A DNA stretch of 20,329 nucleotides from a virus (Duplodnaviria; Heunggongvirae; Uroviricota; Caudoviricetes): the IMG/VR virus record IMGVR_UViG_2537561946_000003, positions 1 to 20,329 of that record. One strand, given 5' to 3'. Numbering within the stretch: the first letter of the stretch is position 1; each line of letters starts with the position of its first letter. Shown piece after piece: positions 2,193-13,675 of this stretch. The position numbers and the translations under genes are program-made. Under the pieces are notes generated by a model. The model did no database searches, was not told the origin of the DNA, and was given only the letters and a program-made list of their open reading frames with translations.

Positions 2193-2686
2193 TGCTGCCC
2201 CCACAAACAGACTTCACGCTCAATATCACGACGGGTCATCAGCCCTTTCCATTGCTTACCGCCAGCGTATGTCCAGCAACGTAGCTGGTCACATGCGCCT
2301 TTGATATCACCCTGGTTTATTTTGCGAAGAAGCGTCGATGTTCTGAAATTACCAGCGCCCACGTTGTAAACGAGCGAGTAAAGAGCGCCGCGCGTTGTTT
2401 CCGGTATATCGACTTTGATGTACGGGTTAATTTGTCTGGCGACCATGGCAAGGTCTTTATTCAGGAGGGCTTTGCATTCTGCTTCGGTATACGTTTTACC
2501 GGGAATGATGTCTTTTCCGGTGTGTCCGTGACATACAGTCCATACGCCAACGATATCTTCGTATGGTATGTAGCTGACACCTTCCAGGCCATCGTCACCA
2601 CTCGGACCAGTGATGAGCACAGACGCTATGGCAACAGCCCCACCACCAATAGCAGCAGCAACAGCCTTGCGTAATGATGGCGACAT
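2189..2686 (-). CDS. R: SAR endolysin (phage 21 R-type, T4-lysozyme-like glycoside hydrolase with N-terminal signal-anchor-release domain)
   Basis: [57 protein letters not shown]... is near-identical to phage 21 R21 as recalled. Gly/Ala-rich weakly hydrophobic N-terminus followed by the E...D...T catalytic region. Start overlaps the holin stop (TAATG). Confidence 0.9.
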
Positions 2687-2901
2687 TATTCACCTCTCGC
2701 AGCCTTACGCTTATCTTCTTTAATCTTGAAATAAAGGTTTGTCAGATACGTCAGCAAGCCAAACACCAGGCTACCCAATACGCCTATTGCCACCCACTGG
2801 GATGGGGAGACTTTGTCCAGCAACTGCAGTAGCCAGTATCCCGTCCCCACCGCTGACGTGGTGTATGACACACCTGTTGTGATTTTTTCCATCTGGTACA
2901 T
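2686..2901 (-). CDS. S: Class II holin / pinholin (S21-like), 71 aa with dual-start motif
   Basis: [71 protein letters not shown] resembles phage 21 S21. Two in-frame Met codons (M1, M4) are typical of holin/antiholin pairs. GGAG Shine-Dalgarno upstream of 2901. The ORF-track frame extends to 2946. Confidence 0.85.
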
Positions 2902-3030: not shown

Positions 3031-3080
3031 AGGTTCCCGATGTGTGTTACATATCATTTCTCCACGGGGAATATCCCCAC

Positions 3081-3130
3081 GCCAGCGCAGACTCTTTTAC
3101 CCGTTCTCTTCTGCGCTGGCTCTTTTTTAT
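3081..3130 (+). terminator. Rho-independent terminator on the plus strand
   Basis: Perfect 10-bp inverted repeat gccagcgcag (3081..3090) / ctgcgctggc (3111..3120), followed by tcttttttatt. T-run only on the plus strand. Confidence 0.4.
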
Positions 3131-3309
3131 TATGCTGCTGCATTTACCTCTGGCACCATGCTTTCTATCTCAACACAATACGTGGTACTTCTTGTAACCA
3201 ATATCATAACGATTAATCGACATAGAATTTCTCCCGTGTACAGGAACAGAGTTAAAAAGCCGGAACCGGAATCAAATCACAGGATGACCATCTGCCAGTG
3301 GCAGGTCAT

Positions 3310-3337
3310 AAAAAAAAGGCCGCGCCATGCGCAGCCA
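3310..3337 (-). terminator. Rho-independent terminator on the minus strand (candidate tR'-like or moron terminator)
   Basis: Minus-strand reading GGCtGCGC-atg-GCGCgGCC followed by a T-run of 8 (plus-strand 3310..3317 is an A-run). GC-rich 8-bp stem with one mismatch. Confidence 0.45.
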
Positions 3338-3522
3338 GAACTCACAAGGAAAATGATAGAAGGAAATAACATTAGTGATGTACGCATGGCGCCTCCCGCT
3401 AAGTTCTGCAATGATCAAACAGAACTCGCTACGTGCCCTTAAAACTCGATCATTTAGCCCCTCCAAGGAGGATTCACCATGCGGTTGTTTTTTTAATAAA
3501 CAGTAAACAAAAAAGTCAAGAA

Positions 3523-3633
3523 TTATTCATTCTGTTTTTTCATCATCGGCCACAGCAATACCACAATGCCGCAGACCAGAGCGCCATCAGTCAGTACCAA
3601 CATTATCCTGCTGGTGAAATCCATCATCACCAT
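3523..3633 (-). CDS. Hypothetical 36-aa hydrophobic peptide (small membrane protein candidate)
   Basis: ATG at 3633 to TAA at 3525..3523 translates to MVMMDFTSRIMLVLTDGALVCGIVVLLWPMMKKQNE: one predicted TM helix and a basic C-terminus. No strong Shine-Dalgarno. Below the ORF-track length cutoff. Speculative. Confidence 0.2.
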   Translation of the reverse strand: MVMMDFTSRIMLVLTDGALVCGIVVLLWPMMKKQNE

Positions 3634-3766
3634 CACTAAAAGCAGGATCACAACAGCAAGCAGACACAGTTTATAAAACAATGTTCAGAAAACGCATTCA
3701 GCATGCCTAAGGTTCTATTCCTACGAATAGCCAACTTGCAACTTAAAATATTATTTATGCAGCCAA

Positions 3767-4525
3767 TTAAATTCTGGTCCTTACAATATCAACCTGAAGA
3801 TTCTTATCTTGTGCTGATTGATAAATGACAAACCTTTTACTACCTGCATTGAAAGAAGTAGACAAAACCAGACAATTATCATAACGAGCAAGAACATAAT
3901 ACCAACCATCATTATAATTAATCATTTCATATTCTTTCTTAAACTGCGGTTTGTAATATCCTGTCAGAAATGAAAAAAGCCAGAAATATGCCACAAAAGC
4001 AATCATCACAATCTCAAAAAAATGTTTTTTTATAAATGGCTTATCATAGAAGCATGATACCGATAAAAATCGCCCATAAGATCTTATCGAAATTGTAACC
4101 GCCAGCGCAATCGCTGCTGACAGTAGCAAAAGAGGTACCTGAATCTTCTGTCTCAATATAGAAAACTCAATAATTGCCGGCACAAACAATAATTCCACAG
4201 CAAAATAAAGGCGAAATACATTTAGCTCTTGCATAGAATGTTTTCTTTTCACTGCGAAAAAGAATACAACACCAATACCCCAACCGATAAGAAATATAGC
4301 AATGACGATAACTGCAAAAAATAAACTTCTGGCAACATCATCAACACCTGCACCTACAATCCACCATGGGAAGCCGTAGTAAAAAGAAGTACCCCATCCA
4401 TAGAAATAAGCACTCCCCCATCCAAGGCATCCCATGTAGGCAATAAAAAGTGAAGAACTCCTGAGCAGTGCACCATCCTTCATAACCACCCCAATACAAG
4501 ATGATAACATTGGCTTACAACTCAT
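3767..4525 (-). CDS. Hypothetical polytopic inner-membrane protein (AT-rich moron between Q and the lysis genes)
   Basis: 252-codon ORF, probably starting at ATG 4483 (GGGGTGG Shine-Dalgarno; MKDGALLRSSS...). Several hydrophobic Phe/Tyr/Trp-rich segments (about five predicted TM helices) and a C-terminal soluble region of about 50 aa. Visibly AT-rich compared with flanking phage genes. No family recognised. Confidence 0.6.
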   Translation of the reverse strand: MSCKPMLSSCIGVVMKDGALLRSSSLFIAYMGCLGWGSAYFYGWGTSFYYGFPWWIVGAGVDDVARSLFFAVIVIAIFLIGWGIGVVFFFAVKRKHSMQELNVFRLYFAVELLFVPAIIEFSILRQKIQVPLLLLSAAIALAVTISIRSYGRFLSVSCFYDKPFIKKHFFEIVMIAFVAYFWLFSFLTGYYKPQFKKEYEMINYNDGWYYVLARYDNCLVLSTSFNAGSKRFVIYQSAQDKNLQVDIVRTRI

Positions 4526-4684
4526 AACAAAAGCAATTCAATGCCGTCAAGAGGTTACAGGCTAAAAAAACTCTATTACATTGCAGTCAGCATGTTTACT
4601 ACACAAATACAATTCAGAGCATAAAAACTACTCGGCGGCAGGTTATTGAGACTCATCAATGACATGTAAAAAACGCCCATTATT

Positions 4685-4725
4685 GGTGTCAAGTTTCCCC
4701 AAAGTTATTCAAAAAGTCAATATTA
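4685..4725 (-). promoter_or_regulatory. Late promoter pR' with Q-binding/qut region
   Basis: Minus strand reads TTGACT-ttttgaataactttggg-GAAACT-TGACACC, co-linear with the lambda pR' architecture as recalled (TTGACT-17 bp-TAAATT-TGACTC). Lies immediately downstream of Q. The -10 is a weak match. Confidence 0.4.
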
Positions 4726-4762
4726 TGCCGTTAATATGTTGCCATCCGTGGCAATCATGGCA

Positions 4763-5386
4763 CTAACGTGTGATCGCATTCAAAATGTTGTCTGCGATTG
4801 ACTCTTCCTTGTGGCATTGCACAACCAGAGCGTCATACAGCGGCTTAACAGTGCGTGACCAGGTGGGTTGGGTAAGGTTTGGGATTAGCATCGTCACAGC
4901 GCGATATGCGGCGCTTGCTGGCATTCTTGAATAACCGACGCCTTTACATCTTCCGCACTCTTTCTCAGCAACTATCCCCCACTGCTCTGTTTTGGCTATA
5001 TCAACCGCACGGCCTGTACCGTGGCAATCTCTGCATCTTGCGCCCGGCGTAGCGGCACTACGGCAATAATCCGCATAAGCGAATGTTGCGAGCACTTGCA
5101 GTACCTTTGCCTTAGTATTTCCTTCAAGCTTTGCCACGCCACGGTATTTCCCCGATACCTTGTGTGCAAATTGCATCAGATAGTTGATAGCCTTTTGTTT
5201 GTCGTTCTGGCTGAGTTCGTGCTTACCACAGAATACAGCCATTCCGAATCCGGCTTGTGATTGCGCCATCCCCATAGCAGCCATCACATCAGTACCGGAA
5301 AGAGAGTCAGAAGCCGTGGCCCGTGGTGAGTCGCTCATCATCGGGCTTTTTGGCGAATGAAATTTAGCTACGCTTTCGAGTCTCAT
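4763..5386 (-). CDS. Q: Late-gene antiterminator Q (lambda type)
   Basis: 207 aa, MRLESVAKFHSPKSPMMSDSPRATASDSLSGTDVMAAMGMAQSQAGFG... is essentially identical to lambda Q as recalled, including the Cys-rich zinc-binding region. ATGA overlap with ninH. Confidence 0.95.
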   Translation of the reverse strand: MRLESVAKFHSPKSPMMSDSPRATASDSLSGTDVMAAMGMAQSQAGFGMAVFCGKHELSQNDKQKAINYLMQFAHKVSGKYRGVAKLEGNTKAKVLQVLATFAYADYCRSAATPGARCRDCHGTGRAVDIAKTEQWGIVAEKECGRCKGVGYSRMPASAAYRAVTMLIPNLTQPTWSRTVKPLYDALVVQCHKEESIADNILNAITR

Positions 5387-5571
5387 CGTCTTCCCTTTTT
5401 GCCTGGCGTTACCATCAGGACGCCGTTAACTATTGCGTGACGCTCGCCTTTGCTGTCTCGGTTGTACTTGAGCACTGTTCCTCTTGCGCAGGAAAGCATC
5501 CTCGCCACTTCGGTCTGATTTCCTCGTGTCTGGATAAGAAGCTCTGGTATCGTTTGAATTGTGGCGTTCAT
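5383..5571 (-). CDS. ninH: NinH-like small DNA-binding protein (Fis-like HTH)
   Basis: 62 aa with GNQTEVARMLSCARGTVLKYNRD...HAIVNGVLMV, matching the lambda NinH core (GNQTEVARRLKCSRGTVRKY). Position immediately upstream of Q as in lambda. Confidence 0.75.
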   Translation of the reverse strand: MNATIQTIPELLIQTRGNQTEVARMLSCARGTVLKYNRDSKGERHAIVNGVLMVTPGKKGRR

Positions 5572-5930
5572 ACGTTCTCCAGTTCGGTGATTTTTATTCC
5601 AAGCCTTCCGCCAGGTACTTTCACGCCACGAATTACGCGAATGTCATCGAATTGCTCGTCGTCTTCCGCAAATCCGGCGTGGATAAGGGAGTCGAGTAAA
5701 CCTTTAAGAATGTTGTCGAGGTCGCGGCGGCGGGAGTCTGGAACGTCTGCGATGACTTTGATTCGTAGTCGTGATTTGGTGAAAATGTCTAACTTGAGTT
5801 GGCGGATGATTTGCTGAACGTCTTTTCGGTATTTCAGGCCTTTATCGCTGATGTAGTATTGGCTTCCCCGTCTTCGCCAGTAGGTGTTCACCGACGGCGG
5901 GTATGGAAGCACAAACTGATATTCGTTCAT
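5568..5930 (-). CDS. rusA: RusA Holliday-junction resolvase
   Basis: 120 aa, MNEYQFVLPYPPSVNTYWRRRG...DSRRRDLDNILKGLLDSLIHAGF..., with the RusA catalytic acidic motif (RRRDLDN) and the same length as E. coli RusA. Confidence 0.9.
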   Translation of the reverse strand: MNEYQFVLPYPPSVNTYWRRRGSQYYISDKGLKYRKDVQQIIRQLKLDIFTKSRLRIKVIADVPDSRRRDLDNILKGLLDSLIHAGFAEDDEQFDDIRVIRGVKVPGGRLGIKITELENV

Positions 5931-10754: not shown

Positions 10755-11405
10755 ATGAATACACAACTGATGGGTGAGCGTATTCGCGCTCGCAGAAAAG
10801 AACTCAAGATTAGGCAGGCTGCCCTTGGCAAGATGGTTGGCGTGTCTAATGTTGCTATTTCCCAATGGGAGCGATCTGAAACTGAGCCCAATGGCGAAAA
10901 CCTATTGGCCTTAGCCAAGGCTTTGCAGTGCTCCCCTGATTACCTGTTGAAAGGAGAGGATAGTCTTTCAAACATTGCCTATCACAGCAGGCATGATCCA
11001 AGAGGTTCGTATCCTCTAATTAGTTGGGTAAGCGCAGGATGTTGGATGGAAGCTGTAGAGCCATATCATAGGCGTGCAATAGATAACTGGTACGACACAA
11101 CGGTAGATTGTTCTGAAGACTCTTTTTGGCTCGACGTTAAAGGCGATTCAATGACTGCCCCGGCAGGACTGAGTATTCCTGAGGGGATGATTATTCTCGT
11201 CGACCCAGAAGTCGAACCACGTAATGGAAAGTTGGTAGTCGCCAAACTTGAAGGAGAAAACGAGGCGACATTCAAAAAGTTAGTTATTGATGCCGGTAGA
11301 AAATTCCTGAAACCACTCAATCCACAATACCCAATGATTGAAATCAATGGGAACTGTAAAATCATTGGCGTTGTCGTTGATGCCAAGCTAGCAAACCTTC
11401 CTTAA
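10755..11405 (+). CDS. c2: C2 repressor (P22-type CI; N-terminal HTH plus C-terminal S24 LexA-like autocleavage domain)
   Basis: 216 aa, MNTQLMGERIRARRKELKIRQAALGKMVGVSNVAISQWERSETEPNGENLLALAKALQCSPDYLLKGE..., near-identical to P22 C2 as recalled. C-terminal domain with GDSM (Ser) and K (FKKL) of the S24 catalytic dyad. Confidence 0.95.
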   Translation: MNTQLMGERIRARRKELKIRQAALGKMVGVSNVAISQWERSETEPNGENLLALAKALQCSPDYLLKGEDSLSNIAYHSRHDPRGSYPLISWVSAGCWMEAVEPYHRRAIDNWYDTTVDCSEDSFWLDVKGDSMTAPAGLSIPEGMIILVDPEVEPRNGKLVVAKLEGENEATFKKLVIDAGRKFLKPLNPQYPMIEINGNCKIIGVVVDAKLANLP

Positions 11406-11609: not shown

Positions 11610-11719
11610 CCAGAACTTGAGTGGTTTTGGGGATGGCGCGAATTGCAGTTGCAAGACAGCGATCGAGAAGATAAGCACCTCGACGCGTCATGCGCCAAAA
11701 CCACTTAAAGGAGACCATC

Positions 11720-12025
11720 ATGGTAACCATTGTCTGGAAAGAATCCAAAGGTACGGCAAAAAGCCGCTACAAAGCTCGCAGAGCAGAACTTATTGCCGAG
11801 CGACGCAGTAATGAAGCACTGGCGCGAAAAATTGCGCTAAAGCTCTCTGGTTGCGTCAGGGCAGACAAAGCAACATCACTAGGAAGCCTTTGCTGCAAGA
11901 AGAAAGAAGAAGTCGTTCGAAAAAATAGAAGTATTTATTACAAGGATTCAAACCCATTAGGAAACAAAATACATGCAGTCCAAAAAATAAAATTGTACAG
12001 TAAACTACCGTACGGTGCTTATTGA
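11720..12025 (+). CDS. N: Antiterminator N (phage 21 type, arginine-rich motif)
   Basis: ATG at 11720 with AAGGAG Shine-Dalgarno gives MVTIVWKESKGTAKSRYKARRAELIAERRSNEALARKIALKLSG..., matching the phage 21 N arginine-rich N-terminus as recalled. The ORF-track frame begins at 11690 without an RBS. Confidence 0.8.
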   Translation: MVTIVWKESKGTAKSRYKARRAELIAERRSNEALARKIALKLSGCVRADKATSLGSLCCKKKEEVVRKNRSIYYKDSNPLGNKIHAVQKIKLYSKLPYGAY

Positions 12026-12027
12026 GT

Positions 12028-12366
12028 ATGCTTATGGTGAAAAAGACTATTTATGTTAATCCTGACCGTGGACAAAACAGAAAAGTATCTGATAGAGGTC
12101 TTACATCTCGAGACAGGAGGAGAATAGCGAGATGGGAAAAGAGGATAGCATATGCATTAAAAAACGGTGTAACACCTGGATTTAATGCTATAGATGACGG
12201 TCCTGAATATAAGATTAATGAAGACCCAATGGATAAAGTTGACAAAGCATTAGCAACACCATTTCCTCGCGATGTCGAAAAAATTGAAGATGAAAAATAT
12301 GAGGATGTAATGCACAGAGTTGTTAATCACGCTCACCAACGAAATCCAAATAAAAAATGGTCATAG
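12028..12366 (+). CDS. Hypothetical basic protein, about 112 aa (early-left operon accessory gene)
   Basis: ORF-track frame 12022..12366 (TTG at 12022). ATG at 12028 or 12034 gives MLMVKKTIYVNPDRGQNRKVSDRGLTSRDRRRIARWEKRIAYALKNG.... Lys/Arg-rich, AT-rich codon usage. Followed directly by an intrinsic terminator. No family recognised. Confidence 0.45.
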   Translation: MLMVKKTIYVNPDRGQNRKVSDRGLTSRDRRRIARWEKRIAYALKNGVTPGFNAIDDGPEYKINEDPMDKVDKALATPFPRDVEKIEDEKYEDVMHRVVNHAHQRNPNKKWS

Positions 12367-12387
12367 CCCACTTCGGTGGGTTTTTTA
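12366..12387 (+). terminator. Intrinsic terminator (tL-like)
   Basis: cccac-ttcg-gtggg stem-loop (12367..12380) followed by tttttt (12381..12386). Confidence 0.6.
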
Positions 12388-12529
12388 TTGTCTGAACTAA
12401 CCGAATTTATTACAGCAAGCCACGCAGTGAAATGGGTGTGAGTTGTGTTGGTCGCCAGAAAATGAAATTAGGCAGCAAACCACTTATTTGAGAGGAATTA
12501 ATATGTCATAAATCCGCTTAACTACGAGA

Positions 12530-13126
12530 ATGAAAGAGAAAATCGCTCGTAACGCTTTAATTAAATCTGGGGTTTTCACTGAGCTTGAAGAAGTAACAAA
12601 GTTAAAGAACCAGCTTGCACTTGACGCCAGAGTTATTGCGTTTGGCGGTAAAAAGAAAACTGAGGAAGTGGATCAGTTATCATCCAAGTTAATGGCTATA
12701 AGCGAAGAACTTGAAAAGCTGGGATGTTCATTTTACTCATGCGATGCCCGTTCAACTTCAATTTATCTGACTGTATCTGGCAGAAGGGTTGGCTGGTATT
12801 CATATGGGAAAGACGGCAACGGCGAAGATATATTGCTCCCTACTCCGACCAAAGATAAATGCATGTTTAGCGCAGAACACGAAATAACAAAAAGGTTTGA
12901 TGAAATCTGCGCATTGCAACAAAAACTTGAAGCCAAGAAAAAGGATATCGAATCAAATGTATGGGCTGCTTTGAACTCAGTCACAACAGTTAAGCGACTT
13001 ATTGAAGTTTGGCCTGAAAGCAAAGAGTTGCTACCAAAAGAAGCAGATAAAGCAAGTACAGCACTTCCTGCTTTACGGGTAGAAGATTTGAATAAGATGA
13101 TTGGACTTCCTTCCGAGGCCGCATAA
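12530..13126 (+). CDS. Hypothetical soluble protein, 198 aa (early-left operon accessory gene)
   Basis: ATG at 12530, MKEKIARNALIKSGVFTELEEVTKLKNQLALDARVIAFGGKKK.... Charged, probably partly coiled-coil. No hydrophobic segments. No family recognised. Confidence 0.5.
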   Translation: MKEKIARNALIKSGVFTELEEVTKLKNQLALDARVIAFGGKKKTEEVDQLSSKLMAISEELEKLGCSFYSCDARSTSIYLTVSGRRVGWYSYGKDGNGEDILLPTPTKDKCMFSAEHEITKRFDEICALQQKLEAKKKDIESNVWAALNSVTTVKRLIEVWPESKELLPKEADKASTALPALRVEDLNKMIGLPSEAA

Positions 13127-13260
13127 TCGTCCTTTATTTTTGGCATAAACAACAGAATAAAAACTGCACTGTGTATTCATTCCAACGAGTGAATACACGG
13201 AGCAATGTCGCTCGCAACTAAACAGGAGCCGACTTGTTCTGATTATTGGAAATCTTCTTT

Positions 13261-13287
13261 GCCCTCCAGCGTGAGGGCGATTTTTTA
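13261..13287 (+). terminator. Intrinsic terminator upstream of ea10
   Basis: gccctc-cagcgt-gagggc stem-loop followed by gattttttat. Confidence 0.55.
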
Positions 13288-13306
13288 TCTGTGAGGATAT
13301 GAACAG

Positions 13307-13675
13307 ATGTCAAACATCAAAAAATACATCATTGATTACGACTGGAAAGCATCAATAGAAATTGAAATCGACCATGACGTAATGACAGAGGAAAAACTTC
13401 ACCAGATTAATAATTTCTGGTCAGACTCTGAATACCGACTCAATAAACACGGCTCTGTATTAAATACTGTATTAATCATGCTGGCGCAACATGCTCTGCT
13501 TATAGCAATTTCAAGCGACTTAAATGCATATGGTGTTGTGTGTGAGTTCGACTGGAATGATGGAAATGGTCAGGAAGGATGGCCTCCAATGGATGGTAGC
13601 GAAGGAATAAGAATTACCGATATCGATACATCAGGAATATTTGATTCAGATGATATGACTATCAAAGCCGCCTGA
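13307..13675 (+). CDS. ea10: Ea10 protein (lambda early-left, acidic 122-aa protein)
   Basis: 122 aa, strongly acidic, MSNIKKYIIDYDWKASIEIEIDHDVMTEEKLHQINNFWSDSEY.... Length and the 73-nt spacing to cIII match lambda ea10 as recalled. Confidence 0.7.
   Translation: MSNIKKYIIDYDWKASIEIEIDHDVMTEEKLHQINNFWSDSEYRLNKHGSVLNTVLIMLAQHALLIAISSDLNAYGVVCEFDWNDGNGQEGWPPMDGSEGIRITDIDTSGIFDSDDMTIKAA

Follow-up and report, generated by a model that had tools for sequence, protein, structure and literature searches.

The open reading frame between Q and the S21 holin

We analyzed a 20,329-nucleotide stretch of a tailed-phage genome (Caudoviricetes; positions 1 to 20,329 of IMG/VR record IMGVR_UViG_2537561946_000003), hereafter called the window, and focused on a minus-strand open reading frame (ORF) of 252 codons at 3767..4525. 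The window is a lambdoid prophage with its rightward operon on the minus strand. This ORF encodes a member of the TfpB/STM1630 family of inner-membrane proteins and lies between the lambda-type antiterminator gene Q, with its late promoter pR', and an S21-type pinholin gene that is followed by lysozyme and Rz genes. The placement agrees with an initial annotation made from the letters alone, since the flanking genes match Q (PF03589) and the S21 holin (PF04971) as that annotation had stated. The features of the region are collected in Table 1.

The longest reading frame is not the one that the family uses. In 25 of 25 aligned homologues the start corresponds to the fifteenth codon of the frame (M15, the ATG at 4483), and an SD-like (Shine-Dalgarno-like) motif, GGGGTGG, stands ahead of this codon at 4492-4486. 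Because all aligned homologues start at the M15 equivalent, the real product is most likely the 238-aa protein, which is also the length given by PGAP for WP_001299184.1. The 252-codon reading was rejected, as its N-terminal 14 residues are without conservation.

The ORF has a GC content of 36.3% (30.5% at third codon positions), compared with 46.9% for the window and 48-51% for the flanking genes, so that the AT-richness described in the initial annotation was borne out. A GC content as low as that of the ORF occurs in only 1.7% of 717-nt segments, and the minimum of the whole window (34.2%, at 3612-4328) overlaps the ORF. Pairwise comparison with six homologues of 46-98% identity gave ratios of nonsynonymous to synonymous substitution (dN/dS) of 0.09-0.17, with dS values reaching more than 2. 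Because these ratios coincide with strongly conserved family motifs and a distinctive composition, the ORF is, as judged from its substitution pattern, a genuine protein-coding gene under purifying selection.

Table 1. Positions, strands and supporting evidence for features in and around the TfpB-family gene
Feature	Position	Strand	Evidence and remarks
Lambda-type antiterminator Q	4763..5386	-	PF03589, E 4e-58; 95-96% nt identity to Q of HK97/HK022/mEp phages
Late promoter pR'	4692..4720	-	TTGACT-17 nt-GAAACT, then pause-site-like CAATAAT (through 4676)
Degraded tR'-like terminator remnant	4622..4646	-	4-nt deletion and substitutions relative to phage 434; no hairpin, z -0.57
AT-rich mobile cassette	3199..4627	-	megablast, ~98% identity with phages 434 and 2B8; GC 38.3%
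Cassette-borne promoter-like elements	4501..4551	-	CTTGACG 4551-4545; TTGTTA-18-TGtTATCAT 4530-4501; consensus scan
TfpB/STM1630-family inner-membrane protein gene	3767..4483	-	238 aa; longest ORF reaches 4525
DUF3927/TciB-like 52-aa membrane protein gene	3523..3681	-	PF13064, E 1.4e-14; phrog_1470
STnc100-like RNA element	3354..3508	-	Rfam RF02076, sub-threshold 38.9 bits (gathering 47), E 2.3e-6
Strong intrinsic terminator closing the cassette	3310..3336	-	GGCTGCGC-ATG-GCGCGGCC + T8; -16 kcal/mol, z -3.1
S21-type class II (pin)holin, start of lysis cassette	2686..2901 (or 2946)	-	PF04971, E 2e-32; 71 aa in E2348/69

Family membership and predicted architecture

The initial annotation had left the protein unrecognised, and this did not stand. 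The protein matches phrog_1521, a PHROG of unknown function, over the full profile (E 2.1e-154). The identical protein WP_001299184.1 is labelled "STM1630 family protein" by PGAP, and PF27470 "TfpB" is the precomputed Pfam annotation of that protein and of all homologues. Among phage proteins it is 100% identical to CPT_434_68 of phage 434 and 97.9% identical to gp58 of phage 2B8. Scans of NCBIfam and of a Pfam-A copy that lacks the PF27470 model returned only noise (DUF4501, E 0.23; CrgA, E 0.46), PADLOC returned no defence family at E<=1, and no lysis family of PHROG or Pfam matched. On these profile matches, the protein is a member of the PF27470 TfpB/STM1630/phrog_1521 family, an object that is already catalogued and uncharacterised. 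A literature search on PF27470, the protein accessions, tciB, Moraxella tfpB and the phage 434 LpxR found nothing relevant.

The family is narrow, as a profile search of 1.84 billion representative sequences recovered only 70 members. These come from Enterobacteriaceae, Moraxella, Pasteurellaceae and Neisseriaceae, together with a few distant metagenomic sequences. In tblastn searches, the window protein aligned with Moraxella tfpB loci at 27-29% identity (E 1e-16 to 1e-19) and with Salmonella at 46-49% identity (E 1e-71 to 1e-81). Alignments and the structure model show a common architecture of about 240 aa, with an N-terminal aromatic/glycine motif, five helices and a C-terminal beta domain. 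Within E. coli, 1293 of 5426 complete genomes contained the cassette that carries the gene, at a median of two copies each, and positions 3400-4800 of the window are 99.8% identical to a prophage of the enteropathogenic E. coli (EPEC) strain E2348/69. Only two isolated phages, 434 and 2B8, carried the gene among 50,697 records.

Hydropathy analysis identified four strongly hydrophobic segments in addition to an aromatic- and glycine-rich N-terminal helix. An AlphaFold2 (AF2) model built from 39 diverse family members reached a predicted local distance difference test score (pLDDT) of 78.8 and a predicted template modelling score (pTM) of 0.72; an earlier model from 23 close homologues only (pLDDT 58.5) was discarded, and the score rose to 78.8 when distant members were added. 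The model places helices at residues 5-36, 47-78, 89-111, 116-136 and 155-181, and a five-strand beta domain at 184-235. This matches the very hydrophobic protein with about five transmembrane (TM) helices and a soluble C-terminal tail that had been described at the outset, the tail being a beta domain of about 55 residues. The predicted cytoplasmic loops contain 11 lysine and arginine residues compared with 3 in the predicted periplasmic loops, and a topology with the N terminus inside and the C terminus outside is favored because of this difference, which in turn places the beta domain in the periplasm. The N terminus is thus probably cytoplasmic, with five TM helices leading to a periplasmic SH3-like beta domain.

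Conservation peaks at residues 21-54, an aromatic/glycine patch (GWGSAYFYGWG...YYGFPWW...DDVARSL) that in the model would run from the periplasmic half of TM1 through the first loop on that side into the beginning of TM2. When averaged over each side of the membrane in the predicted topology, conservation was higher toward the periplasm (2.42 bits) than toward the cytoplasm (1.94 bits; Mann-Whitney p 2e-4). No conserved set of enzyme-like polar residues was evident in the family alignment, and no conserved charged or pore-like residues were found in the helices. A sequence-profile search of the PDB with the 39-sequence alignment gave no match at E<=10, and Foldseek with the model gave a best E of 0.24 against the PDB and nothing significant against BFVD. 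In these searches, TfpB-family proteins had no detectable structural relative.

The mobile cassette and its transcription signals

The gene is part of an AT-rich cassette of about 1.4 kb in which the TfpB-family gene is followed by the DUF3927 ORF, the STnc100-like match and a terminator, in that order. The DUF3927 gene accompanies the TfpB-family gene in many E. coli genomes and is annotated in E2348/69, EC12, 434 and 2B8; it is missing from the variants in Stx-like (Shiga toxin phage-like) prophages and in enterotoxigenic E. coli (ETEC). Because the STnc100-like match ends just ahead of the terminator at 3336-3318, it is possibly a phage-borne small RNA at the 3' terminus of the transcript made from the cassette. 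The homologous site of phage 434 is annotated as a terminator.

Comparison of the Q-to-holin interval with related phages, which the initial annotation had suggested as a check, confirmed an insertion relative to HK97. The Q gene of HK97 is 95.5% identical to that of the window, and homology stops at 4676, just past pR'. HK97, HK022 and the mEp phages have Q and pR' in common with the window (~95-96%) and are without the TfpB-family gene; in HK97 the interval is only 428 nt long and holds a strong tR' terminator (-19.1 kcal/mol, z -4.9). Phage 434 (OL657226), in which the gene is annotated as a "putative membrane protein", and phage 2B8 share the cassette of the window, including its DUF3927/TciB gene and the terminator downstream. 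In 434, however, a Q82-like antiterminator and an intact tR'-like hairpin stand ahead of the cassette and a NanS-p (SASA) esterase stands behind it, whereas the window combines a lambda-type Q and pR' with a degraded hairpin and lacks the esterase. Given this different antiterminator in 434, the cassette is a mobile element, exchanged by recombination between the heads of late operons.

A moron, in the usage of Hendrix and Juhala, is an extra phage gene unit that is present or absent among relatives, deviates in composition and carries its own promoter and terminator. Here the presence is patchy, the composition deviant and the terminator clear, while promoter-like elements conserved across contexts match at the level of consensus only. 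Because HK97 has the same Q without the cassette, the gene is by genome comparison a true moron, inserted relative to HK97 and carried by a cassette that has moved between Q types. The proposal of a horizontally acquired moron in the cargo slot between Q and S was therefore borne out by HK97, 434 and diverged copies elsewhere. A tRNA scan of the window found none, so the interval is not of the tRNA-bearing Stx type.

The signals upstream of the gene suggest how it could be expressed. The pR' of the window is homologous to the annotated pR'/qut of the mEp phages and to TTGACT-17-TAAATT of HK97. Late promoters of the pR' type are "always active" in the lysogenic state, with tR' as the usual end point of their transcripts (PMC7547250). 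Phage 434 has a tR'-like hairpin, AAACCCGCT-GCCG-AGTGGGTTT + U8 (L003, 3479-3500), between its late promoter region and the gene, and this hairpin folds at -13.3 kcal/mol (z -4.3). The corresponding site of the window is degraded (Table 1). A scan for terminator-like sites between 4720 (pR') and the ATG at 4483 found none, and folding of the whole leader from pR' to the ATG gave no significant structure (z 0.16). About 555-572 complete genomes of E. coli contain the junction with the degraded tR' at >=99% identity; strains of O157:H7 and O145 are among them.

Because the tR'-like hairpin is degraded, pR' is intact and no terminator intervenes, we infer expression in the lysogen: there is about an even chance that pR' transcripts run without Q through the TfpB and DUF3927 genes in uninduced lysogens and end at 3336-3318. 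Against such read-through, a U7 tract at ~4577-4571, with weak structure ahead of it (-9.4 kcal/mol, z -0.41), could cause partial termination, and the predicted read-through takes account of intrinsic termination only. A promoter within the cassette may add to the read-through. The cassette brings ~144 nt of its own upstream DNA, and the CTTGACG element is kept in the window, 434, the Stx-like variant, the ETEC plasmid variant and E. albertii despite differing flanks. An autonomous cassette promoter is plausible because this element is kept even in the 59-68% identical variants elsewhere.

Two other regions of the window were examined. On the plus strand, a 132-aa ORF at 3044-3442 sits where other prophages carry the NanS-p esterase; it is annotated as hypothetical in E2348/69 and as a broken pseudogene in strain EC12, has no PHROG match and is probably not a gene. 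A second AT-rich block, at 11690-13675 (plus strand), lies downstream of a CI-type repressor gene (10755-11405) and holds genes for an N-like antiterminator, a Nun-like protein (phrog_5632), an Nmad5 domain protein (PF18757) and a DUF2528 protein.

Genomic contexts and candidate functions

The initial annotation had offered superinfection exclusion, envelope modification and a membrane-acting abortive-infection effector as candidate roles. To the extent that context informs function, we compared the loci of homologues outside this prophage. Stx-like prophages carry a 68%-identical variant (L040-L042, 5001-5717) in the order Q (933W-type), methylase, a 1.3-kb gap without called genes, TfpB, LpxR, PmrD in some cases, NanS-p, DUF1378, DUF826 and S21 holin, a slot that would be the one occupied by stx in Stx phages. 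An LpxR gene is also found nearby in phage 434. On ETEC plasmid contigs (L036-L039, ~5001-5714), a 59%-identical variant is oriented divergently from eltAB at a distance of 0.87 kb on the upstream side, with STb nearby and insertion sequence (IS) elements around. The adjacency of a TfpB-family gene to eltAB hints that the heat-labile toxin (LT) locus was derived from a phage Q-S cargo region.

Outside phages and plasmids, the Salmonella Typhimurium homologue STM1630 adjoins sseJ in an AT-rich acquired islet of the chromosome. STM1630 is listed among the genes co-regulated with virulence genes of Salmonella pathogenicity island 2 (SPI-2) (PMC2639726), and a -10 box and promoter of its own have been mapped, in work prompted by its expression in macrophages (PMC6785131). 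It resembles the window protein in length (238 aa, 46% identity) and in its AT-rich acquired setting, and it gave the PGAP family its name; it differs in being chromosomal beside sseJ, with its own mapped promoter and SPI-2 co-regulation. The homologue of Moraxella bovis, lacunata, equi and oblonga is the classical tfpB, which is enclosed in the invertible pilin segment; it follows one pilin 3' segment in the same orientation and adjoins piv. TfpB of M. bovis and M. lacunata, the namesake of PF27470, shares with the window protein its length class, an AYxYGWG...YGYPWW motif and a C-terminal YYIL... beta domain, but its gene has a pilin gene segment on either side and piv beside it and does not lie in a phage.

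In Pasteurellaceae and Neisseriaceae, the genes are chromosomal singletons at varying sites. That of Glaesserella parasuis (L018, 7001-10044) is directly beside cdtC-cdtB-cdtA, and that of Mesocricetibacter (L013, 7001-14385) is directly beside an RTX toxin operon (HlyD, HlyB, RTX A). The most distant member, a Fibrobacter-like sequence on a metagenome contig (L048, 6001-10048), lies two genes from a protein with N_methyl prepilin-type and Fib_succ_major domains, and this locus is, on gene content, a second and independent association with pilin-like genes. The ORF upstream of this member was considered as a TfpB paralogue and rejected (hhalign probability 0.2%). A distant member of Klebsiella type (P0150) occurs in a variable islet near icd beside a pair of AAA_21/AAA_23 ATPase genes, a context that looks defence-like.

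These contexts are alike in coming from animal-associated Proteobacteria and in being acquired loci with surface or host-interaction functions (pilin, LT/STb, CDT, RTX, SseJ, LpxR/PmrD and NanS-p). Frequent non-phage contexts favor conversion of the host envelope or of host interaction over a phage-specific role, and the contexts, the periplasm-facing aromatic patch and the beta domain together favor a conversion protein that acts at the periplasmic face. Our preferred reading, to which we give slightly less than even chances, is that the 238-aa TfpB/STM1630 inner-membrane protein is encoded by a lysogenic-conversion moron that also comprises the DUF3927 gene, the STnc100-like element and the terminator, downstream of pR'. 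We further propose, tentatively, that the protein works from the periplasmic side of the inner membrane, where it would modify a process of the lysogen's envelope or surface that is relevant in animal hosts, and that it is neither a lysis nor a virion component. Classical Q-S cargo such as stx and nanS-p occupies the same insertion slot downstream of pR', but it encodes a secreted toxin or enzyme whereas the cassette encodes a membrane protein; moreover, the gene here stands ahead of any intact terminator, and its expression may be independent of Q.

A more specific version, in which the protein is a pilin-accessory-like factor that binds membrane-embedded type IV pilin-like subunits, is a long shot. 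TfpY/TfpZ/FimB-like proteins of P. aeruginosa and D. nodosus have their genes beside a pilin gene and help pili to assemble by contacting pilins (PMC11841053). Like the window protein they are small and polytopic in the inner membrane, and their layout is analogous, with the N terminus inside, an odd number of TM helices and a beta-rich periplasmic C terminus (PMC11841053). Carried further, TfpB proteins would bind the N-terminal helices of pilin-like proteins, in pili or in the pseudopili of type II secretion systems (T2SS), through the patch on the periplasmic side, and phages, plasmids and islets would carry them to retune filaments or secretion, with constitutive expression here through loss of tR'; this extension we regard as speculative and rather improbable. 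Adjacency to the major pilin gene, which defines TfpY/FimB, was found only in the Moraxella relatives and not in the window, and the pilin-accessory idea is a minority hypothesis because the enteric copies are without a pilin neighbor.

Several observations weigh against the proposed role in conversion or against its pilin version. TfpY/FimB-like proteins have three TM helices instead of five and are encoded beside pilin, unlike the E. coli prophage copies, and neither the window nor any enteric locus that we examined contained a pilin gene. Neither sequence nor fold searches found a family relative with a solved structure or known function. Deletion of STM1630 left replication in macrophages unimpaired (PMC6785131). 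A hypermotility phenotype of STM1630 comes from one screen (PMC4219756), and a follow-up study with clean deletions raises, in its discussion, possible polar effects behind some of the screen results. The adjacency to toxin loci may be a mere clustering of AT-rich acquired DNA. Finally, a frameshifted copy is annotated in E. coli O157:H7 PV15-279 (L044, 3781-4522), and the PHROG families 14371, 17164 and 3985 consist of fragments; these suggest recurrent pseudogenisation and a gene that is dispensable in some lineages.

Among other explanations, one is that the protein is a superinfection exclusion factor or membrane anti-phage effector made in the lysogen, which would block DNA entry or collapse the membrane on infection. 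We consider this unlikely. A prophage-borne polytopic membrane protein with predicted expression in the lysogen would suit such a role, as would the far greater frequency of the gene in resident prophages than in isolated phages (1293/5426 genomes versus 2/50,697 records) and the ATPase pair beside P0150 in its defence-like islet. HK97 gp15, P22 SieA/SieB and lambda RexB are likewise prophage-encoded, membrane-embedded, AT-rich morons; however, no similarity to them was detected in sequence, profile or fold, and the TfpB family is widespread outside phages. PADLOC found no match, no known Sie or Abi protein is similar, the helices are without conserved charged or pore-like residues, many members are single genes outside phages or belong to loci for pilin, toxins or effectors, and copies are sometimes pseudogenised.

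An equally unlikely alternative is a virulence-associated envelope factor unrelated to pili, concerned, for example, with lipopolysaccharide (LPS) or outer-leaflet lipid, resistance to antimicrobial peptides, or the release of toxins or vesicles, and co-selected with toxins and effectors. The neighbors fit this account, as the gene adjoins NanS-p and the lipid A remodelling genes LpxR and PmrD in Stx-like prophages, has LpxR near it in 434 and occurs beside eltAB/STb, cdtABC, RTX and sseJ. The co-regulation of STM1630 with SPI-2 genes (PMC2639726) and the confinement of the family to animal-associated Proteobacteria point the same way. Yet this is guilt by association: conserved enzyme-like residues are lacking, the STM1630 mutant replicates normally in macrophages (PMC6785131), and many Pasteurellaceae copies lie among housekeeping genes.

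A late lysis accessory (an antiholin, a timing factor or a spanin-like helper), expressed after Q with the S21 pinholin cassette, would suit a membrane protein of the late operon encoded directly upstream of holin, endolysin and Rz, but it is very unlikely. The gene is missing from HK97, from most phages with the same Q and from phages with the same holin, a strong terminator and ~370 nt separate it from the holin gene, and the family is abundant outside phages and has no PHROG lysis category; the lysis role was rejected because of its absence from close phage relatives, the intervening terminator and the non-phage abundance. A chance ORF or a decaying functionless remnant is scarcely credible, since frameshifted copies and fragment PHROGs are outweighed by purifying selection sustained over dS values of more than 2, by motifs kept from Enterobacteriaceae to Moraxella, Pasteurellaceae and Neisseriaceae and by a confident AF2 model once the alignment was deep enough, and the chance-ORF reading was rejected on these selection and conservation data.

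The gene is catalogued, and nothing about it is new in kind. It nevertheless ranks with the most frequent uncharacterised cargo genes that lambdoid prophages carry in E. coli, in a slot that elsewhere holds Shiga toxin, and our comparison joins four annotations that have been kept apart, namely Moraxella TfpB, Salmonella STM1630, phage 434 gp68 and the ORF adjacent to LT in ETEC. The degraded tR' is predicted to turn a Q-dependent late gene into a constitutive conversion gene in ~10% of complete E. coli genomes. If TfpB-family proteins do act on pili, secretion or the envelope, such an activity would account for their retention by the phages and virulence islets of mucosal pathogens.

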